DNA from: Nitrospirota bacterium
GTDB lineage: Bacteria > Nitrospirota > UBA9217
Direction: 5' to 3'
DNA length: 64,000 nt
NCBI GenBank assembly: GCA_963751455.1
Contig: CAVVUN010000001.1
Span: forward strand, 608,001-672,000
Positions 21,133-35,422 of this stretch are shown here, piece by piece (the stretch's first letter is position 1; the number at the start of each line of letters is the position of its first letter). The position numbers were made by a program, and so were the translations under genes. The notes beneath the pieces were generated by a model, which was not told the origin of the DNA, made no database searches, and saw only the letters and a list, made by a program, of their open reading frames with translations.

Positions 21133-21208
21133 GGGGCTGTAGCTCAGCTGGGAGAGCACAAGGCTGGCAGTCTTGGGGTCAGGGGTTCGATCCCCCTCAG
21201 CTCCACCA
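21133..21208 (+). tRNA. tRNA-Ala (anticodon GGC)
   Basis: 76-nt cloverleaf: acceptor stem GGGGCTG/CAGCTCC with G3:U70, anticodon arm CAAGG-CTGGCAG-TCTTG, T-loop TTCGATC, encoded CCA. Confidence 0.97.
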
Positions 21209-21219
21209 AAAAATAAAAG

Positions 21220-21250
21220 AAGGGTTGACCGAAAGGTCAGCCCTTTTGTT
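21220..21250 (+). terminator. rho-independent terminator after the tRNA
   Basis: AAGGGTTGACC-GAAA-GGTCAGCCCTT followed by a T-rich tract. Confidence 0.75.
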
Positions 21251-21357
21251 TTTGGTAGAGGGGGATCGAACGAAGGGGTATGGGGAAGAGACTTCCCCCA
21301 TGCTTCGGGGGAGCACACGAGGGGGCAGGCCCCCTTGTGAAGCGAAGCGCGTAAGAT

Positions 21358-21379
21358 TCCCCCTCAGCTCCACCAAAAA
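21358..21379 (+). repeat. direct repeat of the tRNA-Ala 3' end (att-like copy 1)
   Basis: TCCCCCTCAGCTCCACCAAAAA, identical to 21191-21212. Confidence 0.9.
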
Positions 21380-21381
21380 GT

Positions 21382-21926
21382 AAAGAACCCCGCAGCAGAG
21401 CTGCGAGGCATTTTTAGCTAGAATCTAAAACCTATTTGCTCATCATGCTGATACCGAATGTAGTTTCTGATAACTTCTGCCGTTACTTTGTCGCCAACCG
21501 AACGAACAAAGTAACCATCATTCCAGAGTTCCCCTCCCCAGAGCTTTTTCTTGATCTCGGGAAACTCTCGGAACATCATCTTGGCAGATATACTTTTGAT
21601 CCTTTGCACAACTACTGCGGGAGCAAACTTCGGAGGCACGACCAAAAACAAGTGTACATGATCTTCCATTACTTCCATCGTGTCTATTTCCAAATCGTAC
21701 TGTTCGGCTATCTCCCGAAAAATCTCTTTCAATCGTTTTGACATCCGGTCATCGAACAGCTTTTTACGATATTTTGGAATCCATACAAAATGGTACTTGA
21801 GATCATAGACACAGTGTCTGCTTCTTTTCAGTGGGTTCATGGCCCGTATTGTATCAGAATCTTATCCTGACTTCGTCAGGATAGTTCTTTTCATCCCAGC
21901 AGTAGAACTGCTGGGTATTCAAGAAC
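21382..21926 (-). mobile_element. IS200-type element (tnpA only); ends approximate
   Basis: Subterminal hairpins CCCCGCAGCAGAGCTGCGAGG (~21388) and CCCAGCAGTAGAACTGCTGGG (~21895) flanking tnpA. Confidence 0.75.
21418..21840 (-). CDS. tnpA: IS200/IS605-family HUH (Y1) transposase
   Basis: YHFVWIPKYRKK, DHVH, LWNDGYFVRSVG, YIRYQ. Confidence 0.95.
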   Translation of the reverse strand: MNPLKRSRHCVYDLKYHFVWIPKYRKKLFDDRMSKRLKEIFREIAEQYDLEIDTMEVMEDHVHLFLVVPPKFAPAVVVQRIKSISAKMMFREFPEIKKKLWGGELWNDGYFVRSVGDKVTAEVIRNYIRYQHDEQIGFRF

Positions 21927-22703
21927 TGTTTTTTATAATGGTGATCTTTATCGTGGCATTGTTTGTATCTATCTCTCCAGCAGTCGCAGATTCAGTCAGC
22001 ATCGGTCAATATGATTATTCACTTACCACTGCAATAACGAACATCGGCTCAGCTAAAAAAAAACTATATATTGATGGCGATCCTACCCTTCCGGCAATCA
22101 TTTCAGGGTCGACTGCTACGGTTCCGTCGAATATTTCGATAATTATAGAATACCCTGGCTCTATTGATGTAAACGGGAAATCTCTTACCATCAACGGCCC
22201 CTTCTCCGCAGGACTTCATACAGTTTTTACAGGAACGACTGGGACGGTGAGGTTCGGGACTGCGGGGGTAAAAATTCAAGCAGTATGGTTTAAAGATTAC
22301 ACGACTGATGCAGGTTTAAGCTTAAACGCGGCCATTGCCTCATTAAAAAATGGCGGGGAAATAGAACTACCTGCGTGGGATGTTACATACGAAACTGCTA
22401 TTAACCTTACGGGGAGCAGTCTTCCCCCTATTAAAATTGTGGGGCAAGGGAAAGCAACTACTCTTCGTGCAGCGGTATCAACGGTTGGGATAGACACTAC
22501 TGGGGCTTCAGATTGGGTACTCCGTGATTTTCAGTTAGTCGGAGATACCCCCGCGCCGGAAATAGGGATATTGATGGCAAAAGACAACTCTGCCGGACAG
22601 GGCGGGTTGAGAGGCCGTCTTTATAATATCATTACAGACGGCAGCTTTAATAAAGCAGCTATATTCAATTATGCTTCTGAGGAAAATCGGTTTTATGACT
22701 TAT

Positions 22704-24090
22704 GCCGCTTCAGACTTTAGTGTGGGTACACCCAAGATGTTGTGGTCCGAGGATAACCCGTTTCATGCGGTTTCTGCCCTGGGATAAAGATCAAGGCCTC
22801 CGCAGTGAAAGTAAATTGCCGCTTTGTAGTGCTCCCGATTGCGATAACCGCATGCCATGAGTTTGATCATCTGAATCTTGCTGTTAATCCCCTCCGACGT
22901 AGCATTCGTAATTCGATGCTTGAAGTAAGTCAGCAGATTAGCAAGATGTCGCTTCAACGTCTTTGCGGCCTCAATCATTGGAGCCAGCCTGGAGCGGGTC
23001 GCCCAAAAATACCATGCCTTGAAGTATTTCTCCGCGCATTTCCTATACGCGTATGACCAGAAGGCACGGAGTGATTCTTTGATGGCCCATGCGCGGCCCG
23101 TCTTAAGATCAGCGTTCTTTACCTTGTCGAACTCCTCGCGCCGCCAATCCGGAACATTCTCCTCGTTCCACAGCCACAGATGCCTTGTCCCCTTGAGCCG
23201 AAAATCATCGCGCGCGGCCAGCACTTTGTGTTCGCCTCGCCGTACCTTGTCCACAGCTTTCGTTACATGCGTCGTTGCATGATACCGGTCAAAGACAATC
23301 TTCTCATCTGCATCGGGGACATATGCCTTCGTCGCTGCGATATACGGGTCCCACATATCCATGGCAATCCCCTCAATCCGCGACAGCTCTTCTTTGGCGA
23401 ACTGCTTGAAGTAGGCTTCCAGACTCTTTTGCTCCCGGTCGTCCACAACATACTCGACCGTTCTCCCATCAAGATCGCACACAATTGTCTCGTAATTCTG
23501 GCCTTTCCCAACTGACTTCTCGTCAATCCCGATATAGCTCGGCACCCGTTTCTTCTTTCTCCCAAGCCCGCGTGTAACCGCCCGAAGCATCACTCCCCAC
23601 GTCTCATCCCAACTCGTTTCCCAAAGCCGCGTCACTCCCGTTACATCGCATTCCTTGAGAGTATCGATCAGTCGTGACTCAAACAGCCTGGTGAACTGTG
23701 AACGCGGTTCCGCCCACGGCGATAGAATCTGCTTCACTCCATCCTTCGGGCACTTCGTTCGAGGCAGCCGGGCATGCAAGAATGTTTGCAACTGGCAGGT
23801 GTCGAGGTGTCGCCACACTTGCTCCTCCATATGGTCGTGCACCGGCGCTTCTTGTTTGCATGCTGCACAGGAGAATTTCGCCCCCTGTGCTTCTTCTACC
23901 CACACGTCGACGCGATTGCGCGCCATGTCTACCTGAACCTTCGTTACCCTCCATGGAAACTTTATCCCAAGCAACATCGTGTAGAGTTGAGTGTCTTCCA
24001 TACCAAGCCTCCGTTTTTGGAATGGAAGATAATATCACAAATTCTCAACCACTACATCTTGTGTCTACCCACACTCGTTCCAGAAGAACC
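22704..24090 (-). mobile_element. ISL3-family insertion sequence, 1387 bp
   Basis: ~43-bp imperfect TIRs sharing AGTGTGGGTA.AC.CAAGATGT.GTGGT; 8-bp TSD TGACTTAT at 22696-22703 and 24091-24098. Confidence 0.92.
22763..24001 (-). CDS. ISL3-family transposase
   Basis: WRHLDTCQ, IGIDEKS, AMDMWDPY, VFDRYH, TNATSEGINSKIQ. Confidence 0.95.
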   Translation of the reverse strand: MEDTQLYTMLLGIKFPWRVTKVQVDMARNRVDVWVEEAQGAKFSCAACKQEAPVHDHMEEQVWRHLDTCQLQTFLHARLPRTKCPKDGVKQILSPWAEPRSQFTRLFESRLIDTLKECDVTGVTRLWETSWDETWGVMLRAVTRGLGRKKKRVPSYIGIDEKSVGKGQNYETIVCDLDGRTVEYVVDDREQKSLEAYFKQFAKEELSRIEGIAMDMWDPYIAATKAYVPDADEKIVFDRYHATTHVTKAVDKVRRGEHKVLAARDDFRLKGTRHLWLWNEENVPDWRREEFDKVKNADLKTGRAWAIKESLRAFWSYAYRKCAEKYFKAWYFWATRSRLAPMIEAAKTLKRHLANLLTYFKHRITNATSEGINSKIQMIKLMACGYRNREHYKAAIYFHCGGLDLYPRAETA

Positions 24091-24497
24091 TGACTTATAT
24101 CTTGTAAATAGAAAAGTAGGAGCAGCAGCATATTGGACAACTGGAGACAATGCAGGCACAGGAGAAAGTGTGTCAAGTGTGTACGCTACTATTGCAAGCG
24201 GAGAGCAGTCAAACACTGACAACCGATTTTATGGTTGTGCTTTCTTTACTATAGGTGCTTCGTCTGACGGCATCAGAATGCGCGGGGCAAATGACTCTAG
24301 TTGGGATGGTGCATTTTTTATTAATTTAACCGGCAGTGGTAGATCACATGTATATGTGGATGCCGATGGTATTGCTTCCAGCAGAAATACGTTTTCTCAC
24401 TTCCGGGGCGAGTTGGGCGCTACAGTCCAGCCCGTAAGCGGATTTCATTTTGCAGGTACTACAAATTGCGGCCTGTGGGAAATATCAAACGGATAAT

Positions 24498-26121
24498 CCT
24501 TAAAAGAGCAGTTGGTCCTTGTCAAACGAAGTTAATTGATGGATATTGCAGCAATTAACCCGAAGAGGAGGACTCGCCCAATGGGTGAACCAAATAGATC
24601 GTTGTCTGCACGGAAACCAGAGGGAGTTGCGGTCGATACGTTCAGCGGTCGTATCCACGTAGAATGGGATCCGACTGCAGCCGTTACGCCACTGGGACAG
24701 ATGGCATTTTTCATCGATTTTCTGAAGACCGGCGGTCTCTACGATCCCTGGGTTGCTGATTGTCCGCTTCACTACACAAGCCCCAATGCACCGGAAAAGC
24801 GAGATGTGCTGGGCACGGTGTTATTGTCTGTTCTGGCCGGCCACCATCGCTACTCGCATATTACGAACGTTCGGTGCGACAACGTCAATCCCGGCCTGCT
24901 CGGCATGACCGCCGTCGTGAGTGAGGACTCGGTGCGAAAAGCCCTGCGCCAGATAGATGAAACTCAGGGGGTGCATTGGCTCAAGGAACATGTCAGGCGT
25001 TGTTATGACGCGCTGCTTTCTGTGTCCTGGATCATGGATGGCGACACCACGGTAAAACCGCTGTACGGGAAACAGGAAGGCGCAGTGGTCGGCTATAATC
25101 CTCACAAGCCTGGCAGGCCGTCTCATACCTACCACAGCTATCTGATGGCCAACACCCGGCTCGTGCTGGATGTCGAGGTACAGGCGGGCAACAAAACCGC
25201 AACCTGCTATAGCACGCCGGGCTTGTGGGAGTTGCTGGGCTCCATTCCAAAACGTCACTGGCCCGCGTTTTTTCGGGGCGATTCAGGCTGGGGAAATGAC
25301 GTCTTCATGTCCCAGGCGGAAACAAAAGGCCTGCCCTATCTGGTCAAGCTCCGCCTCACCAAAAACGTGCGGAAGCTCATCGAAAAGACATTTCAGCGGA
25401 ATGGTTGGCAGCAAGCCGGTCAGGGATGGGAAGGTGTGGAAGAAGAACTTCAGCTTATGGGGTGGAAGATAAAGCGGCGCGTCATCGTACTTCGACGGGC
25501 GCTCAAGGGCGATGTCGTCATCAGTGAGAAAGACAAGGATCAGATGGAGCTTGGTTTCGTCGAGACGAATGGAACCGCAAAGCGGTATGAATACGCAGTG
25601 CTGGCCACAACCATTCCGGGCGAAGTCCTTACCATCGCGCAGCACTACCGGGATCGGGCCGATGCTGAGAACAATTTCGATGAACTGAAAAATCAGTGGG
25701 GGTGGGGAGGCTATACGACCAAAGATCTGAAACGCTGTGGCTATATGGCCCGGATCGTGGCGTTGATCTACAACTGGTGGTCCCTCTTTGTGCGGCTCGC
25801 CCGACCGGACAAGCATCTGGAGGCTGTTACGAGCCGGCCGTTGCTTCTTCATGCGGTCGCCAAACAAACATATCACCAGAGCCAGACTACCGTGACCATT
25901 ACAAGCGCTCACGCAAAGACGGAGAAAATACAGGGCACGCTCAATGAGATCGCCCTGTTTCTGAGAAGACTCCGGGAAACTGCGGAGCAGTTGACGCAGG
26001 CGGAACGTTGGAGGTTGATCTTAAGCCGTGCATTCAACAAAATCCTGAAGGGGAAACCCCTCTCGACGCCAGCTTTGCTGCCTCAGCCAGTGTGAAAATA
26101 GACTCAACTGCCGTTTTTAGG
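24498..26121 (+). mobile_element. IS1380-like insertion sequence, ~1.6 kb, no target duplication visible
   Basis: TIRs CCTTAAAAGAGCAGTTGGTC / CCTAAAAACGGCAGTTGAGTC; the two flanks belong to unrelated genes. Confidence 0.8.
24536..26095 (+). CDS. DDE transposase (IS1380-like)
   Basis: MDGDTTVKPLYGKQEGAVVGYNPHKPGRPS, FRGDSGW, YRDRADAENNFDELKNQWGWGG. Confidence 0.9.
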   Translation: MMDIAAINPKRRTRPMGEPNRSLSARKPEGVAVDTFSGRIHVEWDPTAAVTPLGQMAFFIDFLKTGGLYDPWVADCPLHYTSPNAPEKRDVLGTVLLSVLAGHHRYSHITNVRCDNVNPGLLGMTAVVSEDSVRKALRQIDETQGVHWLKEHVRRCYDALLSVSWIMDGDTTVKPLYGKQEGAVVGYNPHKPGRPSHTYHSYLMANTRLVLDVEVQAGNKTATCYSTPGLWELLGSIPKRHWPAFFRGDSGWGNDVFMSQAETKGLPYLVKLRLTKNVRKLIEKTFQRNGWQQAGQGWEGVEEELQLMGWKIKRRVIVLRRALKGDVVISEKDKDQMELGFVETNGTAKRYEYAVLATTIPGEVLTIAQHYRDRADAENNFDELKNQWGWGGYTTKDLKRCGYMARIVALIYNWWSLFVRLARPDKHLEAVTSRPLLLHAVAKQTYHQSQTTVTITSAHAKTEKIQGTLNEIALFLRRLRETAEQLTQAERWRLILSRAFNKILKGKPLSTPALLPQPV

Positions 26122-26240
26122 TTCATCGGACCAAGGAGGTTCGTGGCAAGCGAACGCTCGATCTGCTCAGGCGTCAGCTCCTCGAAGTAACCGGCATAGA
26201 AGTTGCCCGCGCTATTGAGCAACACATCAATGCGCCCGGC
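26122..26240 (-). pseudogene. internal fragment of a short-chain dehydrogenase gene
   Basis: GRIDVLLNSAGNFYAGYFEELTPEQIERSLATNLLGPMN (NNAG region), cut by the IS end. Confidence 0.7.
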
Positions 26241-26252
26241 CAGAACGTCCGG

Positions 26253-26996
26253 GTGGAAGACATGATGAAAACAAGCGGTCTTCTGGGAATCCGGGAACGG
26301 TTTCTGTACGCGGTCGGGCTGTCCGCCGCCGCGGTCATTACGGGCGACGTGGGCAGCGGCAAATCATCAGGCCTCCGGTTTGCTCAGGCGGAGCTGCACC
26401 CCTCGGAATATAAGGTACTCCATGTCACGGCAACATCAGGGACGATTGCGGAGCTGTACAAGCAGATATGCCATGCCTTGGACATCGAAACCAGAGGCTC
26501 CTCAAAGGCACTCCTGACCAGGACCATACGCGCTACGCTGCTGGACCTTGTAGGGAAGAAACAGAAGCCCGTGCTCGTAATCGACGAGGCATCGCTTCTG
26601 CGGCTCGATGTCTTCGCCGAACTTCATACCATCACCCAGTTCGAGGCAGACTCAAAACCGGTCCTGCCGATGATCCTGGCAGGCCAGAACAACCTTATCG
26701 ATAACCTGCTGTTCCGCCAGTCGCGAGCACTGGCTTCGCGCGTTGTGGCGAGGGGGCACTTGGAAGCGATAACACTGAGCGAGATGGCCGGGTACCTGAC
26801 GCACCACGTGGAAATAGCGGGAGTGCGGCAGAACCTCTTCTCCGAACAGGCTGTGACCGCAATCCACCAGGGCTCGGGCGGGCTCCTCCGGAGAGCGAAT
26901 AACCTGGCGAGGGGCAGCCTGATCGCTGCGTCAGCAGAGAAGTGCAACGTCGTTTCGGCGGAACATGTACGGGTCGCTTCAACCGAAATAATCTGA
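26253..26996 (+). pseudogene. ExeA-like AAA ATPase (transposon helper), probably 5'-truncated; partner transposase missing
   Basis: GDVGSGKS, VIDEA, ILAGQ, SGGLLRRAN; followed by a hairpin and a repeat-rich transposon end. Confidence 0.8.
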
Positions 26997-27037
26997 ATCA
27001 TCGGGGGGCTGTGCCCCCCGTTTTTTACAAGACGAAG

Positions 27038-27129
27038 GGCTGGAATAATGTGAGCGGCGATTGGCCGGACGAATGTGAACTAGCTGGTTTAATCAGAGAA
27101 CGTTGGCTGGAATAATGTGGGAATCAACA
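27038..27129 (+). mobile_element. right end of the ExeA-associated transposon
   Basis: GGCTGGAATAATGTG twice plus a degenerate copy, ending ...AATCAACA (TG...CA-type end). Confidence 0.6.
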
Positions 27130-27481
27130 CCGGCCCACTCGTGAAGCAAAGCGCGTGAGATTTCCCCCTCAGCTCCACCAAATTTTCAAAGGGTTGACTT
27201 TCATCGGTCAGCCCTTTTTCATTTGACTGTGCCAGTTTTGTGTCAGTTGACACGCGGTACACGTCGTCCATTACAAAAACTGCTTTCTGTAAGTGTGCCG
27301 GTGCAAGGTGGGCATACTTCATCGTCTGCTTCAGGCTCTTATGTCCAAACAGTTTTGAGAGTGTGGCAATGTCGATCTTGCCGGACATCATAGGAAGGCT
27401 CGCGTAAGTGTGGCGCAGGTCGTGAAAGTGGAAGTCGTTTATCTTCGCATTCTTTACCGCTGTATTGAAACTCCGCTTCAC
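27089..27481 (-). pseudogene. C-terminal fragment of a tyrosine recombinase (phage/island integrase)
   Basis: FHDLRHTYAS, FGHKSLKQTMKYAHL; reads toward the att-like copy. Confidence 0.85.
27163..27182 (+). repeat. direct repeat of the tRNA-Ala 3' end (att-like copy 2), followed by a terminator-like hairpin
   Basis: TCCCCCTCAGCTCCACCAAA, preceded by the same GTGAAGC.AAGCGCGT.AGATT as copy 1. Confidence 0.9.
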
Positions 27482-27597: not shown

Positions 27598-27888
27598 TTA
27601 ACTCGCCTTTCTAAGTGCTGTAACAGGCTTGTGCTTTTTCATGGCATGCCACAGGTCCCAATCCCGCTGAAGGTTCAACCAGAATTCCGGCCCAGTGCCG
27701 AACGTCTCGCCAAACGCGAGGGCTGACGAGGCAGTCACACCGCGCCGGCCGTTCACGATCTCGTTCAACCTGGCCCAGGTCCAGCCCAGGTGCTTGGCAA
27801 GCTCTACCTGCTTCATTCCCATAGGCTCCAGAAATTCTTTGAGCAGCATCTCCCCCGGATGCGTGGGCGGTCTTTTTTTCGGCAGCAT
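27598..27888 (-). CDS. higA: HigA antitoxin (HTH-XRE)
   Basis: PTHPGEMLLKEFLEP, LNEIVNGRRGVT, PEFWLNLQ..WDL. Confidence 0.93.
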   Translation of the reverse strand: MLPKKRPPTHPGEMLLKEFLEPMGMKQVELAKHLGWTWARLNEIVNGRRGVTASSALAFGETFGTGPEFWLNLQRDWDLWHAMKKHKPVTALRKAS

Positions 27889-27902
27889 AATTTAAAACCT
27901 CC

Positions 27903-28193
27903 TCAATGGTAATCGACTATATCCACGTCCAGGGCGTCGCCTTCCTCCCAACGGAAGATGATCCGCCACTGGTCGTTAATTCTCACGCTCCAGAACCCTT
28001 CGAGCTCGCCCTTGAGCTTTTCCAGCCTGTTCCCCGGCGGCGCCTTCAAGGTCTCTACCATGACGGCCGCATTGATCTGATCAAGAAGCCGCTGCGCTTT
28101 CGTATGCAGCTCTACAGGTATCTTCCGGGCGCTCCGGCTCTTGATCCCGTCATAGATATCCTGCGCTGTCTTGCTCGAGATGTTCCGTATCAT
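27903..28193 (-). CDS. higB: HigB toxin (RelE/ParE superfamily)
   Basis: PPGNRLEKLKG, WSVRINDQWRIIFRW, IVDYH; toxin-first gene order; promoter TTGCAA-17-TATACT at 28202-28230. Confidence 0.93.
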   Translation of the reverse strand: MIRNISSKTAQDIYDGIKSRSARKIPVELHTKAQRLLDQINAAVMVETLKAPPGNRLEKLKGELEGFWSVRINDQWRIIFRWEEGDALDVDIVDYH

Positions 28194-28468
28194 CGATCGT
28201 AAGTATATACCGGCTTCCGATATATTGCAAGCCAAAAGAAAAGCCCCTGAGTTGTTCCCCAAGGTCACAGTGTCGACCGGTGTGAAGCCATTATGACGGA
28301 GTTGACCGAAAGGTCAGTCCTATTGTTTTTGGTGGAGGGGATTCGAACTGCAAGACCTGCTACTTTATCAGAATAGCCAATATCACAACGATCTGTTATG
28401 CTATCGAAAGAAACTCTATCTTATCCTTCTCAGCTCATGCATGATAAGCTCTTACGTTTCATAAAGCC

Positions 28469-29779
28469 ATGGTGAAAGGAAAAAACATACAAAAAGGGAA
28501 CCGGTCTTCTGGAATACTGCTTACAGTACTGTTAGTATTCCTGTCCTCGCTGACAGCACCGGGTTGCAATTCATCAAAACCGCCGCCCGAACGAGCAACA
28601 TCGGATACAGCTCCGTCTGATACTTCCCCCCCTTCTACTGCTCCGACTGATACTGTCCCCACTTCTGATACGATTCCACCCGTCCAGGTACCCGCCAAAC
28701 ATATTCTCTGGGTCAGCGCTTATTATGCGGGATGGATGCAGAAATGCGACGGCGCCGCATATCTGAGAGCACAGCAGATCGATTTCAGCGCCGTTACTCA
28801 TATAATCCACTTTTCCCTTATGCCGAATCCCGACGGTTCAATCGACGATAGCATGAACTGCCTCACCCCCGAGAATTCCCAGGAACTTCTGACGGCTGCA
28901 CATGCCGCGGGAAAAAAAGTGCTCATTTCTGTCGGCAGTTGGGATACAGAGACCGATTTTCTGGGAGCGACCAGTGAAAGAAACAGGGCGGCATTTATCA
29001 GCAATCTCGTTACCATCATGACCACGAGAGGATATGACGGCATTGACGTCGACTGGGAGCCTGTTTCTTCAAAATCAAGCGCACAGTTCATCAGTTTTAT
29101 TAATGAACTCAGAAACGCGCTGGACGGTTTGAAGCCACGCCCTCTTTTGACCGCTCCTGCCATGTGGGAACCTTCAGTATACGCTCAACTACAGGAAAAG
29201 CTCGATCAGATCAATATCATGACCTATGAATTATCGGGCCCATGGCCGGGATGGCAAGTATGGCATAATGCCCCTCTTTATGACGGCAGCCATCGGTTTA
29301 TGAGCACAGGTGCATCGCTTCCCTCTGTAAATTCCCTGATCGAGGCCTTTCTCGCTGCAGGCGTACAACCTCAAAAGCTTGGCCTGGGGCTCGAGTTTTA
29401 CGGAGCCCTATGGCGCAGCGGGTCCGGGACATCGACAGGGGGGGCTACACAGCCGCTTCAAACCTGGCAATCTGCGCCCTCGATGGTGATGATCCCGTAT
29501 TCTCTGATCATGGACTCTAATTACCAGTCTCAGTATTACTGGGATTCCGCGGCAGTGTCTCCGTACTTAAGCCTTGATAAGGACGGAGCGACTGAGGACA
29601 CATTCATTTCGTACGACGACGAGAAATCATTGATGGAGAAAGTGGCCTATGCGAAAAAGAAAGGACTCGGCGGCATCATGGTGTTCGAGCTGGGCGGTGG
29701 ATGGAGACCGTCAGCGGCTACCCCGGATTATTTGCTGCAGACAATAAAAAACAGTGTCTCAGCCGGCAACGACGGATAA
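28469..29779 (+). CDS. GH18 chitinase-like glycoside hydrolase, probable lipoprotein with a Pro/Thr linker
   Basis: Lipobox-like APGC, KVLISVG, intact DGIDVDWE, INIMTYE, FISYDD, KGLGGIMVFEL. Confidence 0.92.
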   Translation: MVKGKNIQKGNRSSGILLTVLLVFLSSLTAPGCNSSKPPPERATSDTAPSDTSPPSTAPTDTVPTSDTIPPVQVPAKHILWVSAYYAGWMQKCDGAAYLRAQQIDFSAVTHIIHFSLMPNPDGSIDDSMNCLTPENSQELLTAAHAAGKKVLISVGSWDTETDFLGATSERNRAAFISNLVTIMTTRGYDGIDVDWEPVSSKSSAQFISFINELRNALDGLKPRPLLTAPAMWEPSVYAQLQEKLDQINIMTYELSGPWPGWQVWHNAPLYDGSHRFMSTGASLPSVNSLIEAFLAAGVQPQKLGLGLEFYGALWRSGSGTSTGGATQPLQTWQSAPSMVMIPYSLIMDSNYQSQYYWDSAAVSPYLSLDKDGATEDTFISYDDEKSLMEKVAYAKKKGLGGIMVFELGGGWRPSAATPDYLLQTIKNSVSAGNDG

Positions 29780-29826
29780 GTTGCGGAATCTTTACAATGC
29801 CGTTAGCCGGCGCTATATACATATAT

Positions 29827-30852
29827 ATGGTGCGGAAAATATTAATTCTCGTTGTTATTGTTGTCGTATCCATTCTCAGTGTCAATCCTGCTGATCCAGC
29901 CGGGAAGCGCGGAGCCTTGGTCCTTTGTTTCGATGATGGAGATAAAAGCTGGACAGAAACCATAGCCGGAGAGCTCGCCCGTGTTGGGGGGAAGGCAACG
30001 GCTTTTGTCAATAATTACCGTATCCATTCCGGTTTGATCACTGTCCGTGAATTGACTGCTCTGCAGGACCGCTTCCACTGGGAAATCGGCACTCACGGCT
30101 ATCATCATTTCGATCCGAAACCTTACGTCGAATTGTACGGCCCGTCTCAGTACGTTGATAAGGAGATCAGGGCCTCGATAGACGAGTTGCGGTCATACGG
30201 CATTGCCATACAATCGCTCGCGCTTCCGTTCAACAGCATTACTGAAGACGTGAACAGAAAAGCGTGCGAATATGTCAAATACACACGAAGAGATGATGAC
30301 AATCCGCTTGCGTTGATCGGAAACAACGACAACTCTTTTCCGGGAGTTATCATTGATATCGGTCACTATGTTCCCCTGTCCCAGATGCTTGCCTGGATCG
30401 ATACCGCACACGGTAAAGCTCAGTTGCTGTTTCTTGTCAGCCACCAGGTGCTGCAGGATAATAAATTTGTTACCGGCGAGGTCCTGTCTGTTACAGAGCG
30501 AACGTTGATGGCAAAAGAGGCCATAAGCCGGACGGAAGTTTCTTATATGTGCCTGGTGCCTGACACGGCAAAGGCGCTGGAATTCGGCATTGAGATCAAA
30601 AGCATTGAAGGCAATGTAGTGCGTGTGGGCAACGGAGATTTGACCCGCCTTTCGAAATCCGGGGCAAAATTCCTTATCGGTCCGTGCATGAGCATCAGGC
30701 TTTCCGATTTCAGGGAGTTAATCAAATATGCCGCTGAAAGAGTCGACTTTTTGACCGTAACAGAAGCGATGGGGCAACAAAGATCCGATTTCCGAACAAA
30801 TCATTCTAAAAAGAACATTTGGGACGCAGAAAAATCGCATAAACGCAGATAA
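29827..30852 (+). CDS. exported polysaccharide deacetylase (CE4/NodB family) with an inserted domain
   Basis: Signal peptide, LCFDDG, WEIGTHGYHH, LALPFN, LVSHQV. Confidence 0.85.
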   Translation: MVRKILILVVIVVVSILSVNPADPAGKRGALVLCFDDGDKSWTETIAGELARVGGKATAFVNNYRIHSGLITVRELTALQDRFHWEIGTHGYHHFDPKPYVELYGPSQYVDKEIRASIDELRSYGIAIQSLALPFNSITEDVNRKACEYVKYTRRDDDNPLALIGNNDNSFPGVIIDIGHYVPLSQMLAWIDTAHGKAQLLFLVSHQVLQDNKFVTGEVLSVTERTLMAKEAISRTEVSYMCLVPDTAKALEFGIEIKSIEGNVVRVGNGDLTRLSKSGAKFLIGPCMSIRLSDFRELIKYAAERVDFLTVTEAMGQQRSDFRTNHSKKNIWDAEKSHKRR

Positions 30853-31102
30853 AGTCGGATTATTCAGCTTCTTTTCAGAACAGCATTAAGACAAATCTAA
30901 GAAAAAGCCCTTCTATCCGCAGATTTCGCAGATTGACGCAGATTCTAAAACCGGAATTCTGGTTTTGTTTTTATCTGCGAAATCTGCGTAATCTGCGGAA
31001 AAAAAATGACCTGAGTAGTTACATATTTTCTTTTGTTTGATCTGCGGTTATCGTTCGACTGAGCTCACGCCGAAGTCTGCGTCCAGCTGCCGTTTTCAGG
31101 AT
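30801..31102. repeat. nested palindromic repeat / MITE cluster between convergent genes
   Basis: CGCAGATTT-type 9-mer triplet with its inverted ATCTGCG triplet (30915-30999), CTGAGTAGTTAC end, GTTCGACTGAGCTCACGCCGAAG, and CAGCTGCCGTTTTCAGG resembling the IS1380-like right end. Confidence 0.7.
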
Positions 31103-31105
31103 CAT

Positions 31106-33025
31106 TCAAAAGCGCCGGGTAAGTGAGGCCCCTGCCGTAACCGCCCTGAATGATCCAGTCTCCTGCCTGAAATTGTTCATGATGCCGCTCCTTATTTTCG
31201 CCATCCAATCACGGTATATGCCGAACGAGCCTTCCAGGTCAGCGGCATAACTCAGACGGAAATCCTTCATGGTATTGTCCTTGTGCTCTCCAACGGAAGC
31301 GATGAAATTGACAGCGTTGTCATCAGTGATCTTCCAGGATGTGTATCCGGCGACAGCGTAACGCTGATAAAATTCAGGATCATAATAGCCGTTCTCGAGA
31401 TCCATGTCGAAACCCTGCCATGACAGCAGCGGGCCGGCTTCGAAATCGACTTTTGTGCCTCTGACGATAAACCTTCGCACTCCGATGACCGATTCCCATG
31501 ACCTGTTGTTATCCGAATAGGTGTCATAGTTCGAATTTAACTCGGCTTTATAATTGATGTCCGGCTCCCAATAAAGGTAAATATGGTTGGAGGCGCGTTT
31601 GATCCCGAGGGATACGGTGCGCGGCGAAACGATGTAATAGCCGTACTCCCGTCCAGCCGTCATGAGGAAATTATCCTTGACACGGAAGTCCGCAGAGAGA
31701 TTGTGCGTCGTTATGGTGCTTTGTCCCTCAGCAGAGGCGCCTCCTGCCGATACCACCGCTGCAATAGCAGGTGAAAATACATGGGTGATCCCAAGCCTGC
31801 CCTCCCGAACATCAGTGGAAGTGTCCCCCGCAATTGCCTCCAAACCGCTTTCTGCCCTGGCTTTCAGGATATTGTTCTCTATGCCTGCCTCGAGCCGGGT
31901 GTCCGGAGATAAAGAATAGCCGCCTTTAAAAGAATATCGCGAGATATCGAGACCATCCGAGTCATGATAAAAACCCCAGTCAATTTCGAGGAACGGCCGT
32001 ATAGGAATCGTTATCAAACGGCGCACATCGTATGTTTCCTTGGCTGAAGGATTCAGCTTCTCAAGGATCTCCAGGCTGTTCAACGCCTCTCTCCGGCGGT
32101 TCCCATAATGTAAAGCTATTGTGCGTGAATAAAGGACATTATAGTCATCCGGGGCGCCTTTGAGGAGCTCATCGGTCAACTCCAAAGCCTCTGTAGAACG
32201 GCCTGCCCAGGCAAGAATACCTGCTTTCACCTTCCGGAACTCCGCGGTCTCTCCGAAATGCTTTCTGTATTCTTCCAAAAGATCGAGCGCTGCCGGATAG
32301 GCGCCCCTCCATCCCTCCACCCTGATAAAATCGAGCATTGCTTCGCCGTCATCGGGATGATGATCGCAGTATTTTTTATAATGAATGACCGCATCGTCAA
32401 GCTCTCCTGCCCAGCCCTGCGTTCTCGCCAGATCCAAAAGCGCCTTTTCATTGTCCGGCGCACGTGCGAGAATTCTTTTATAACTGTCCCTCGCGACATG
32501 ATACTTGCCGAGTTCATTCGCGAGGGACCCGCGCGCCTGCAAATACTCTATGTTGCGAGGAGCAAATGTTACTGCCTTCTCTATAGCCTGAAAAGCCTGC
32601 TGTTTCTTGTCCATGATAGAATACGCCTGGCAGAGCCTGTAGTAGAGAGAAGCATTTTTCGGAGACAGATCAAGCGCCCTTTGGAGCGCCTCGGCGCTTT
32701 CTACCGCATTTCCCCGGGCCCACTCGATATCGACAATGCGCAGCCAAAGATCGAGCTGCTCCGGCTCCTTTTTTAGAATCGCTTTATAGATTTCAAGCGC
32801 CTTTTCAGTTTCTCCCCTCATCTCTGCCTGAAGCCCGCTCGCTTTTGATAAAGACTGTTTTGACGTGCGGATCGAAGATACGGTGGACGCCGGGAAGACC
32901 GGCTGATCTTCTGCAAAAACAGGCACGTATGCGAAAGAGAGAACCGCGCAGAGAAGCAGCCTTCTTATTACGCAGTTTCCCGGCGCTTCTCCGCATTCCG
33001 GCGATAGTCTTGTTGGCATAGTCAT
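31106..33025 (-). CDS. TPR-repeat plus C-terminal outer-membrane beta-barrel protein (PgaA/BcsC-like exporter)
   Basis: Signal-like N terminus, many TPRs, barrel with GYYDP motif, C-terminal ASLTRRF; ATG overlaps the GT2 stop (ATGA). Confidence 0.82.
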   Translation of the reverse strand: MTMPTRLSPECGEAPGNCVIRRLLLCAVLSFAYVPVFAEDQPVFPASTVSSIRTSKQSLSKASGLQAEMRGETEKALEIYKAILKKEPEQLDLWLRIVDIEWARGNAVESAEALQRALDLSPKNASLYYRLCQAYSIMDKKQQAFQAIEKAVTFAPRNIEYLQARGSLANELGKYHVARDSYKRILARAPDNEKALLDLARTQGWAGELDDAVIHYKKYCDHHPDDGEAMLDFIRVEGWRGAYPAALDLLEEYRKHFGETAEFRKVKAGILAWAGRSTEALELTDELLKGAPDDYNVLYSRTIALHYGNRRREALNSLEILEKLNPSAKETYDVRRLITIPIRPFLEIDWGFYHDSDGLDISRYSFKGGYSLSPDTRLEAGIENNILKARAESGLEAIAGDTSTDVREGRLGITHVFSPAIAAVVSAGGASAEGQSTITTHNLSADFRVKDNFLMTAGREYGYYIVSPRTVSLGIKRASNHIYLYWEPDINYKAELNSNYDTYSDNNRSWESVIGVRRFIVRGTKVDFEAGPLLSWQGFDMDLENGYYDPEFYQRYAVAGYTSWKITDDNAVNFIASVGEHKDNTMKDFRLSYAADLEGSFGIYRDWMAKIRSGIMNNFRQETGSFRAVTAGASLTRRF

Positions 33026-34359
33026 TTTCGCCATTTTCTGTTTTCCGAAACCCACAGGTCTTTTCCGAAACGAAAGAAGGTCACTATGTCGTAAAAAACA
33101 GCTGCATACCGGATCGGCGAAGATAATAATCCAAGGACGACGGCATTGATACGATCCCCGCGTGATATAACAGCAAGAATGACCGCAGTAACTGTGATTT
33201 CCGCAAAAACCGTCACGATGAGCGGCTCCCACAACTGCAGCAGAATCATGAGCGAGAGCACAAGCGGAAAGAAGCCTTTCTCAAATGCGGCTGTAAAAAC
33301 CAGCCAGCCTACGGGCCGGTCACAGGCGGCCTCAGATGCTCCTGCAGAGACAGGCTGACTCAATTGATCTTTTATACTGCTTCTTTTCTTCATGCTGAAG
33401 AGGCTCCTCAGCAGCGGATCAAAATAGTAGCAGCTCTGTAAAAACGCTGAAGACCACAGGTAGAACTGACGCGGCAACCTTGTTACTTCCGGCTCTTCCG
33501 ACCGCGCGTAAACGTCTCTTACCTGAACATTGCTGTACCCCGCATTGAGGAGCGCAAACCCGATGAAGATATCTTCTGAATTGGTCAGGTTGTCGCCGAA
33601 AACGGGCTGATAGGCGTCGAACAGTTGTTTAAGATAGGAACGCCGGTATGCGACGGCGCATCCTACCGGGTTGATTATGGACCCGAACAACGCAATCTGT
33701 CCCGGGTAAATGAATTGCTGCAAAAATCTGTAGAGCGTGGCGCGAAAAATATTTGTCAACCCTCTTTTGAACCGTTTCAGCGCACTCCCCGGCAAAGAGA
33801 TCGGCGCATCCGGAACTTCTCTGACGAATTGCTGTACTGATTCAGCATGAAGCACCGCACTGCGGTCTCGTTCCCGCAAAGGAGCAACAGCGCCGCAAAC
33901 ACTCGCAATTCCCGGGTGCCGGTACAGCTCCTGAACCACCCGTTCCAGGTAATTTTCCGATTCAAGCACGGTGTCCGCATCAAGAACGAATTCCACGTCA
34001 GAGTCTAATTCATTTGCCTGCCGTCTTAACGTAGGCGTCTTTCCCTGCGGTTTCCGGCGTTTTATCGCTATGAGCTTCATGCTGTTGAGTTCGCAGAACT
34101 TCTTTGCAAATTCGGTGGTCCGATCCGTACTGCCGTCGTCAACGAGGATAATAAACCGGGGCTGCAGCGTCTGCCGGGCAATGGAAGAGAGGCACAGGAC
34201 GATATTGCGTTCCTCGTTCAGGGCAGGGATAACGATATCAACGACAGCCTCCCGCCCTTCAGGGGATGAGATGAGATCCCGCTTTCTTCTTCCGGTCATC
34301 AGCCCTATGATGCCGATGATGGAACTGGGGCTGAAAACGAACCAGGGGATGACTGCCAT
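33022..34359 (-). CDS. membrane GT2 glycosyltransferase, processive-synthase-like
   Basis: IPALNEE, VDDGSTD, GKT, LDAD, GCAVAYRR, NSED, RQFYLW, C-terminal TM helices; SD GGAG before 34359. Confidence 0.88.
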   Translation of the reverse strand: MAVIPWFVFSPSSIIGIIGLMTGRRKRDLISSPEGREAVVDIVIPALNEERNIVLCLSSIARQTLQPRFIILVDDGSTDRTTEFAKKFCELNSMKLIAIKRRKPQGKTPTLRRQANELDSDVEFVLDADTVLESENYLERVVQELYRHPGIASVCGAVAPLRERDRSAVLHAESVQQFVREVPDAPISLPGSALKRFKRGLTNIFRATLYRFLQQFIYPGQIALFGSIINPVGCAVAYRRSYLKQLFDAYQPVFGDNLTNSEDIFIGFALLNAGYSNVQVRDVYARSEEPEVTRLPRQFYLWSSAFLQSCYYFDPLLRSLFSMKKRSSIKDQLSQPVSAGASEAACDRPVGWLVFTAAFEKGFFPLVLSLMILLQLWEPLIVTVFAEITVTAVILAVISRGDRINAVVLGLLSSPIRYAAVFYDIVTFFRFGKDLWVSENRKWRK

Positions 34360-34360
34360 G

Positions 34361-35422
34361 TCAAACTCCTTGAAACAGTAATTTCCGGGCGCTCTCAATC
34401 AAGTCATCCACGGTGTCTTCGAGCCGCCAAGCGTGTACATACTTGGTAAGACTGTAGAACTTCTCCAGTGAGGGCGTTCGCCGGTAAACCTCCTCAAACT
34501 CCTCTCCATAAGCCTCTTTATAGGGAATGTGCTCGATAGGCGATTTGCTGCCCGCCCGCTCGCGTATCAATTCAGCCAGCTTACGAACCGAGATCGGTCT
34601 TTGATGGCCGACATTGACTATCTGTCCCTTGCTGGCAGGGTTATTGGCAAGCAGGTCCAGGCCGGCGACAGTATCACGAACATCGCAAAAACAACGTTGT
34701 TGCGTGCCGTCGCCAAAGACTGTGATAGTTTCTCCATTGACCGCCTGCTCAACGAATCTCGGTACGACCATACCGTAGCGGCCTGTTTGGCGCGGACCGA
34801 TCGTATTAAAAAACCGGACAATCATTACGTGGATATCGGATTTGTGCGCATAGGCAATGCAGAATGCTTCATCCGCAAGCTTGCTGACTGCATAACCCCA
34901 GCGCAGCACCTTCGTCGATTCAACAGTGAGTTTCAAATCTTCGTGAAATTGGCAAGCCTGCGCTGTGAGACCCCCTTCGTGGGGCTCTTCCAGGCTGCCT
35001 GGCTCGGCAGCGCCGGGCAAAACCGTGGGCTTATTGCCGCAGCCGTACACTTCCGAGGTCGAGGCGACGATGAGCTGCTGTCGCCAGCTGTTCGCGCGAA
35101 CCGCTCGAAGCAGCCGCTCGCATCCTGCAATGTTGACCGCCAAGGTGTTGATCGGATCGGCAATGACCCTGAACACTCCTACGACAGCCGCCATATGATA
35201 GATGCGGTCGGCCCACGTTACCGCTTTCTCCAGACCGTTCCACGTAAGAATATCAGCTTCATCGAATTGAAAATCAGGCTTATCCTTAAACGGCTCGATA
35301 TTATCGAAAGAACCTGTGCTGAGATCGTCTACAACGTGTACCTTGTCTCCCTTTCTCATATGGTATTCAACCAGGTGAGAGCCTATGAAACCCGCGCCTC
35401 CAGTGATAAGTATATGCACCAC
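34361..35422 (-). CDS. NAD-dependent nucleotide-sugar epimerase/dehydratase (extended SDR)
   Basis: TGGAGFIGSH, STSEVYG, YAVSK, RFFNTIGPRQ. Confidence 0.93.
   Translation of the reverse strand: MVHILITGGAGFIGSHLVEYHMRKGDKVHVVDDLSTGSFDNIEPFKDKPDFQFDEADILTWNGLEKAVTWADRIYHMAAVVGVFRVIADPINTLAVNIAGCERLLRAVRANSWRQQLIVASTSEVYGCGNKPTVLPGAAEPGSLEEPHEGGLTAQACQFHEDLKLTVESTKVLRWGYAVSKLADEAFCIAYAHKSDIHVMIVRFFNTIGPRQTGRYGMVVPRFVEQAVNGETITVFGDGTQQRCFCDVRDTVAGLDLLANNPASKGQIVNVGHQRPISVRKLAELIRERAGSKSPIEHIPYKEAYGEEFEEVYRRTPSLEKFYSLTKYVHAWRLEDTVDDLIESARKLLFQGV

Follow-up and report, generated by a model that had tools for sequence, protein, structure and literature searches.

A probable undescribed synthase-type glycan secretion locus, possibly for an N-acetylxylosamine-containing polymer, in a Nitrospirota bacterium

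The window analysed here comprises 64,000 nucleotides from a Nitrospirota bacterium (assembly GCA_963751455.1, contig CAVVUN010000001.1, positions 608,001 to 672,000) and holds two converging groups of genes that a preliminary description had put forward as a candidate new exopolysaccharide locus of the synthase type. On the minus strand lie a short-chain dehydrogenase/reductase (SDR; 34361..35422; PF01370), which by its best PDB match, motifs and trees is a predicted UDP-N-acetylglucosaminuronic acid (UDP-GlcNAcA) decarboxylase resembling UDP-N-acetylxylosamine synthases (UXNAcS); a membrane glycosyltransferase of family 2 (GT2; 33022..34359; 445 residues; PF00535/PF13641), the predicted synthase by motifs and model; and a protein with a tetratricopeptide repeat (TPR) scaffold and a 16-stranded outer-membrane beta-barrel (31106..33034), the predicted export porin by TPR models and fold. 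Two accessory genes on the plus strand converge on these three core genes, namely a glycoside hydrolase of family 18 (GH18; 28469..29779; PF00704, DxxDxDxE intact) with an N-terminus that is lipoprotein-like by eye, and a carbohydrate esterase family 4 (CE4) deacetylase with a hydrophobic N-terminus (29827..30852; PF01522). All five open reading frames are open as originally described, and the suspected translational coupling of the core is borne out: one base separates the SDR stop codon from the GT2 ATG, and the ATG of the barrel gene (33034, or 33025) overlaps the GT2 stop. Candidate export signals on the GH18, CE4 and barrel proteins come from reading the sequence by eye only. None of the five proteins reaches an NCBIfam equivalog cut-off among the families listed, and, in line with the earlier account, Pfam finds no PilZ domain on the GT2 and no PgaD- or BcsB-like frame is seen in the cluster.

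The unit that is conserved across loci is SDR–GT2–TPR/beta-barrel. We sampled 21 loci from genomes, the best 80 of 320 loci from metagenomes and a further one from the window's own phylum; the 21 genome loci stem from a single-protein scan and are a biased sample. Neighbours were called with profiles built from the sampled loci, and the identities of representatives were checked by Pfam. Where 600 bp or more are available upstream (87 loci), the SDR adjoins the GT2 in 83; where 2 kb or more are available downstream (62 loci), the barrel gene does so in 59, and the same core is present in three of three further genomes. Named hosts belong to the Gammaproteobacteria, Acidobacteriota, Gemmatimonadota, Poribacteria, Desulfobulbaceae and Helicobacteraceae, and include the named cultured species Lysobacter sp. 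M2-1 and Rhodanobacter panaciterrae. The distribution is patchy, with the locus in 2 of 301 genomes of the window's phylum (its own genome counted) and in 4 of 251 genomes of one gammaproteobacterial order (the centre genome counted). No full-length relative of the GT2 was found on plasmids. Of 198 neighbours 79 were scanned; neither a flippase, a Wzy, a ligase nor an ABC exporter is recurrent among these, and the neighbour clusters likewise show no recurring Wzx/Wzy or ABC exporter. The Acidobacteriota loci carry a separate SDR sub-lineage, with the SDR gene placed after the porin gene (order GT2, porin, SDR). In seven of them (L009, L010, L015-L018 and L021) the core is divergent from a conserved cluster whose translations resemble, putatively, those of tad/Flp pili.

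The GT2 of the window carries the motifs DDGS, GKTPT, DAD, PVGCAVAY, SED and QFYLW. The NSED (residues 260-263) and QFYLW (298-302) singled out in the preliminary description are indeed present and are both family traits: SEDIFIG occurs in 98 of 99 full-length loci, QxYxWS in 93 of 99 and QxxRW in none of the 99, the position of its arginine being taken by Leu or Met. Conserved catalytic residues are D74/D75, D127/D129, E262/D263 and the acceptor W302. Among 8000 scored candidates 1602 were relatives, the best 120 of them 50-58% identical and mostly about 460 residues long. The family is isolated, because a search of its profile against 1.84 billion representatives gave 141 matches at ≤1e-30 and, beyond these, fragments and generic GT-A domains. 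Whereas family members score above 500 bits, on the family profile NodC reaches 58, PgaC 57, YaiP 36, BcsA 8.5 and NfrB 3 bits, and the GT2 is therefore none of these. Against the PgaC/IcaA model TIGR03937 it scores 57 bits (cut-off 422) and against the NodC model TIGR04242 50.5 bits (cut-off 550), and its finger-helix motif has a two-residue insert relative to PgaC. The predicted model (pLDDT, the predicted local distance difference test, 71) matches best the mannosyltransferase PcManGT (Z 25.0), followed by viral and Xenopus hyaluronan synthases (HAS; Z 20-22.6), chitin synthase (Z 18.6) and BcsA (Z 18.2), at 13-17% identity. The GT2 is modelled with a fold like that of the processive HAS and keeps SED and the acceptor Trp, and processive polymerisation is predicted. 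The window copy itself sits on a long branch, at most 56% identical to the other loci in the tree, and its basic loop counts 34 residues, as compared with a median of 50 and a minimum of 47 among homologues. A frameshift behind this odd loop was considered and ruled out, the remnant of the loop being in frame.

The barrel protein is matched in Pfam by TPR models and, weakly, by PgaA_barrel. Its C-terminal 352 residues are modelled (pLDDT 94) as TPR helices followed by a 16-stranded barrel, which aligns to PgaA (4y25; Z 28.5, root-mean-square deviation (rmsd) 2.2 over 278 residues), BcsC (Z 28.3) and PelB (Z 25.2), the next structural class following at Z 17.9. By this model the protein belongs to the PgaA/BcsC/PelB porin class, and a role in export is predicted. 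With a porin of the PgaA/BcsC class thus joined to the synthase, the earlier proposal of a new locus of the synthase type is supported, and the locus conserved; we consider it very probable that it encodes a real system for glycan secretion of the synthase type that has not been described before. One of the sampled porins, L037:6294-8669, has an N-terminal AMIN domain; the same locus holds two different GH18 genes and a CE4 gene.

What sugar might such a system secrete? The SDR had been described as an epimerase, and on this point the earlier account is not supported. Its top PDB match is UDP-glucuronic acid decarboxylase 1, and it carries the motifs STSEVYG and RWGYAVSK. Of 90 clustered core SDRs, 77 were near full length and kept; S[TS]SE[VI]YG and RWxYxxxK are each found in 73 of them. 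We compared them with 11 named references, whose labels are NCBI annotations, not assays, and of which L112 and L116 are what we take from context to be a WbgU/TviC-type and a UDP-glucuronic acid epimerase, respectively. The STSE motif matched only references of the decarboxylase side. The first ~400 bases of the characterised Bacillus UDP-N-acetylxylosamine synthase are printed in PMC5078965 (statements on this and all other publications cited here refer to the portions available to us), and the UXNAcS orthologues used, the SDRs of L105 and L106, each beside a dehydrogenase, were matched to these bases by eye. A UXNAcS orthologue is the best reference for 77 of 77 core SDRs, with median scores of 196 bits, as compared with 159 for UDP-xylose synthase (UXS), 120 for ArnA, 97 for the presumed WbgU/TviC type and 68 for GalE. 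In a mixture-model tree of 25 of the 77, core SDRs and UXNAcS form a clade (support 98/90) inside a decarboxylase group of UXS, ArnA and UXNAcS (97/93), and an approximately unbiased (AU) test rejects a grouping with C4-epimerases (p-AU 0.0026). The window SDR also stays below the cut-offs of epimerase models (GalE, 90 vs 262 bits; TviC, 88 vs 760); it contains an insertion of ~26 residues. Scores, motifs, tree and PDB matches make its membership of the UDP-uronate decarboxylase family well supported, whereas the choice between UDP-GlcNAcA and UDP-glucuronic acid (UDP-GlcA) as substrate rests on gene context, and formation of UDP-N-acetylxylosamine (UDP-XylNAc) is predicted. A related SDR of Legionella adelaidensis lies within another candidate secretion locus (L104:6768-13155), together with an N-acetylhexosamine (HexNAc)-type dehydrogenase, a YaiO-family barrel, a HEAT protein, a QRDRW GT2 outside the family and a second SDR.

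Gene context is informative with respect to this choice. All ten dehydrogenases linked to the core read GYVG(L/I)P, as do TviB and the orthologue of the Bacillus UDP-GlcNAc dehydrogenase, and the GYVGLV seen in the Ugd of this genome occurs in none of them; the sampled loci yielded no gene of the Ugd type. For all six linked dehydrogenases scanned, HexNAc-type models outscore Ugd-type ones, but remain under the TviB cut-off. Linked dehydrogenases occur in 9 of the 46 loci for which 3.3 kb or more of downstream sequence is available, or in 8 of the 30 groups that these form at 80% GT2 identity. The genome of the window has a HexNAc-type dehydrogenase elsewhere, plus a separate pair of Ugd and UXS.

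The accessories were counted over the same 46 loci and 30 groups. CE4 enzymes remove acetyl groups, and a CE4 gene is a recurrent accessory, present in 18 loci and 12 groups. The CE4s belong, by alignment, to several unrelated lineages, have a distribution over the GT2 tree that calls for 10 gains or losses, and in L074, L076, L087, L088 and L100 even lie inside the porin polypeptide (TPR-CE4-TPR-barrel, 1011-1157 residues). The window CE4 scores 36.5 bits against 23.1 for PF01522 and has the metal motifs FDDG and THGYHH, and homologous genes lie convergent to the core in L023, L035 and L037 (47-52% identity), and in L122. The window GH18 (PF00704, 178 bits against 29.6) has a DGIDVDWE that aligns to chitinases; catalysis by GH18 enzymes requires a 2-acetamido group. 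It was not found in 60 relatives, and homologues 61-67% identical flank the core in L037, L046 and L054. It had been cautioned that the two opposed halves of the window locus might be neighbours by chance; given that these hold the only GH18 and one of two CE4 genes in a 5.7 Mb genome, and given the flanking homologues, they are linked beyond chance. Both enzymes belong to the system as had been suggested, yet GH18 is not part of its core: present in 4 of 46 loci and 1 of 30 groups (4 of 102 loci overall, one lineage at 80% GT2 identity), it marks essentially one lineage, and most loci are without a linked hydrolase. Elsewhere, 3' of the core in L031, L032, L047 and L061 (4 of 46 loci; 2 of 30 groups, or three at 95%), a GH10 is found. 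These four are canonical xylanases by sequence, save that they read WDV[AGV][AS]E, with Ala or Ser for the Asn that precedes the acid/base Glu; all 120 nearest relatives have Ala there, the named ones being mostly from Thiobacillus, whereas two GH10s of a genome without the GT2 keep WDVVNE. This Asn binds the C2 hydroxyl of the -1 sugar, and its mutation opens space there (PMC8056907). The linkage of this GH10 clade rests on four loci, because the clade was not found in 401 Gammaproteobacteria genomes, and we regard the Ala/Ser clade as a candidate for a new GH10 specificity. An AT3-SGNH O-acyltransferase gene stands directly 3' of the porin gene in L019 (10467-12440), with a clustered homologue in L095 (6321-8300), which suggests O-acetylation of the product in some lineages.

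How might these activities be combined? We envision that a UDP-GlcNAc 6-dehydrogenase, encoded within the locus in some genomes and elsewhere in that of the window, would supply UDP-GlcNAcA, which the SDR would decarboxylate to UDP-XylNAc. The inverting GT2 might then polymerise XylNAc, either by itself or in alternation with GlcNAc or GlcNAcA, through the inner membrane, most likely in beta-1,4 linkage; the periplasmic CE4 may strip part of the N-acetyl groups; the chain would be exported via the TPR/16-strand porin; and the GH18 in the window, or the altered GH10 in other lineages, might trim or clear it. The beta configuration is proposed because the GT2 inverts, and the 1,4 linkage because of the specificities of GH10 and GH18. 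XylNAc, in turn, is put forward because it is the sole sugar that fits GH18, the GH10 without its Asn, CE4, dehydrogenase and SDR together. We consider the chances about even that the product is a secreted, beta-linked, partly de-N-acetylated polymer containing XylNAc, with substrate, linkage, processivity and export all being predictions, and an alternating copolymer in the manner of HAS is equally possible. A more specific version, poly-beta-1,4-XylNAc/xylosamine made by an undescribed cross-phylum pathway with its own GT2 family, a decarboxylase of two lineages, repeatedly recruited CE4s and a retooled GH10, is offered tentatively.

Several observations weigh against a XylNAc polymer. With respect to the synthase, membrane helices number about three at the C-terminus of the GT2, plus a weak one at its N-terminus, fewer than in HAS; the GT2 is without the QxxRW arginine, its closest structure is a three-helix mannosyltransferase, and the window copy has lost the basic cytosolic loop motif Y[RK]QxFG that is kept in 113 of 119 homologues. 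As for the precursor, core SDRs are just 34-38% identical to the UXNAcS orthologues (the window SDR 34% to one of them); the node uniting the two has a support of 79/83 in a third tree and is unresolved in a quick tree; a grouping with UXS is not rejected (p-AU 0.086); and the ordinary UXS of the genome scores as high on UXNAcS as does the window SDR (184 vs 182 bits). A dehydrogenase is carried by only 10 of 102 loci, and HexNAc-type dehydrogenases are common anyway, so that their presence in 20 of 22 GT2-bearing genomes is weak evidence. Finally, CE4 is missing from 28 of the 46 well-covered loci, 38 of them carry neither GH18 nor GH10, and no report of GH18 cleaving XylNAc linkages was found in a literature search.

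It is conceivable, if unlikely, that the same system secretes a bacterial xylan, O-acetylated in some lineages, with an SDR that makes UDP-xylose, a CE4 that acts as acetylxylan esterase and a GH10 that is a plain xylanase. The UXS that is the top PDB match of the SDR, the AU test, the xylanase-like GH10s and the acyltransferase after the core are all consistent with this, as is the only PDB match of the window CE4, a domain of a xylanase, and the loss of the GH10 Asn could equally suit a 2-O-acetyl group. A xylan leaves the GH18 unexplained, however, and is at odds with ten HexNAc-type dehydrogenases out of ten, with UXNAcS outscoring UXS for every core SDR and with a genome that already has its own UXS. 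We deem it similarly unlikely that the GT2 is non-processive, like PcManGT or NodC, and makes a lipid-linked or short XylNAc glycan that is exported by the porin or decorates another surface molecule. The best structural match, with its three membrane helices (PMC10569066), the few hydrophobic segments of the GT2, the missing QxxRW and the rank of NodC as joint-best named profile match would favour such an activity, but a TPR porin of the PgaA class is nearly always adjacent, the neighbours scanned show no recurrent gene for a flippase, Wzy, ligase or ABC exporter, and endo-type GH10 and GH18 enzymes together with CE4 imply a chain.

The version set out in the preliminary description, in which the SDR is a C4-epimerase and the polymer is chitin/chitosan-like or made of GlcNAc/GalNAc(A), now appears quite improbable. 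It would agree with intact GH18 and CE4 enzymes and with the TviB-like dehydrogenases, given that in Vi-type pathways the partner of TviB is a C4-epimerase; against it stand the rejected C4-epimerase grouping, the confinement of STSE to decarboxylase-side references and the GH10 partners, which it does not explain. A plain chitin or chitosan in particular is unlikely with the SDR placed among decarboxylases, because such a product would not need a decarboxylase-type SDR, and an SDR adjoins nearly every GT2. That the family is as described and the window copy is decaying or deregulated, as its long branch, shortened loop with a lost motif, SDR insertion and nearby insertion sequence (IS) elements and integrase remnant might suggest, is very unlikely in view of five open, coupled frames that keep their catalytic motifs.

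The proposed XylNAc system shares parts with several known ones. The PgaABCD system for poly-N-acetylglucosamine likewise combines a GT2, a CE4 and a TPR/16-strand porin, and the barrels superpose closely; PgaC differs in having TED and QRLRW in place of SED and QxYxW, a PgaD is not seen here, and the dedicated decarboxylase-type SDR and the GH18 or GH10 accessories set the present system apart. The preliminary description raised the possibility that the system is not gated by cyclic di-GMP; PilZ is not the only mode of binding, given that PgaCD, which does without it, binds the nucleotide between arginines that come from the two partners (PMC8892547). NodC has EDR and QQLRW where this family has EDI and QxYxW. 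With class I HAS the GT2 shares its fold (viral HAS, Z 22.6, rmsd 3.6 over 355 residues, 16% identity) and the principle of a single-site processive GT2, here predicted to be processive, supplied by a nucleotide-sugar dehydrogenase, and HAS sets the precedent for alternating two sugars (10.1101/2024.10.24.620076); the model aligns just to HAS residues ~45-452, however, with fewer membrane helices, and the present system adds an outer-membrane porin, an SDR and a CE4 and has linked dehydrogenases of the HexNAc type, not Ugd. PcManGT of Pyrobaculum, the best structural match (rmsd 3.3 over 319 residues), also with three membrane helices, is an archaeal mannosyltransferase 16% identical to the GT2. 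We know of no porin partner for it. E. coli NfrB/NfrA, YaiP/YaiO and Bcs cellulose share the architecture of a GT2 and an outer-membrane barrel, but their synthases score far below the family on its profile, no PilZ or other extra domain was found on the present GT2, and QxxRW, PilZ and BcsB partner, which mark BcsA cellulose synthases, are not seen here.

The predicted precursor route from UDP-GlcNAc via UDP-GlcNAcA to UDP-XylNAc is known in Bacillus (PMC5078965, PMC8861577), and PMC8861577 cites an exopolysaccharide of GlcNAcA and XylNAc from the B. cereus group; the GT2s of the Bacillus locus, however, are tandem-domain proteins outside the family (27-39 bits on its profile), and the stretch read holds no porin. 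A route to UDP-XylNAc has also been proposed for incednine, where IdnS1-S3 form a like trio of dehydrogenase, XylNAc synthase and deacetylase (PMC11284099), but there it serves as a monosaccharide donor for an antibiotic, with neither polymerase nor porin. We did not find the locus in the literature, a search that did not cover subscription papers or the epsSMASH list of 14 synthase-dependent systems, and the available portions of PMC8892547, PMC5607165, PMC10569066, the SeHAS preprint and the epsSMASH preprint do not describe it. As far as the compared literature was available, the products of its synthase-dependent systems are built from hexoses, hexosamines or uronic acids. If the proposal is correct, the product would be a surface polysaccharide containing the rare sugar XylNAc, with a backbone new among natural polysaccharides that resembles chitin in part and xylan in part, and poly-XylNAc/xylosamine would amount to chitin or chitosan without C6. 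Its synthase would represent a new GT2 family in which the acceptor motif is altered and the membrane domain minimal, and a GH10 clade would have been retooled from xylanase to the cutting of amino-xylan, which would explain the 'xylanases' that sequence names indicate in sulfur-oxidising Thiobacillus. Even with plain xylose, it would be notable for a bacterium to secrete a xylan made by one GT2. For the SDR as well as for the GH10 Asn-to-Ala clade, one purified enzyme would suffice for a test, the small three-gene kit would be expressible in E. coli, and the locus occurs in cultured species.

Horizontal gain of the cluster is likely, despite a GC content that resembles the rest of the genome; among the matches listed, DNA matches in 30 relatives fall on the left flank, the IS elements and the intergenic repeat and cover almost none of the five genes. 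This repeat of ~170 bp (30861..31033, no strand assigned) has internal inverted symmetry, lies between the converging halves, recurs in at least four further copies at 97-99% in its own genome, with matches in relatives too, and is probably outside the pathway. Upstream of the cluster, a tRNA-Ala(GGC) gene occupies 21133-21208, and the 3' 17 bases of the tRNA are repeated at 21359 and 27164. The cluster is preceded by this gene, by IS elements, by the tRNA 3' end in three copies, by a C-terminal integrase remnant (27089-27481) and by higBA, the genes enclosed by the tRNA 3'-end repeats being presumably of IS200, ISL3, IS1380 and IS21 type; this part of the window (21133-27481) is an integration hotspot. 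That the operon lies inside a tRNA-Ala island was considered and dropped, since the att-like repeats stop at 27180, ahead of the cluster. A simple GGDEF/EAL pattern matched the window and four other loci, without a clear link to the core. The HigB-like toxin and its helix-turn-helix antitoxin (27598-28196) directly precede the GH18 gene. Within the hotspot, reading-frame pieces without Pfam match (21839-22720 and ~24090-24496) flank the transposase at 22763-24001, beside which an 8-bp repeat is found at 22696 and 24091; the two may be parts of a single beta-helix-like gene that the IS element has interrupted.

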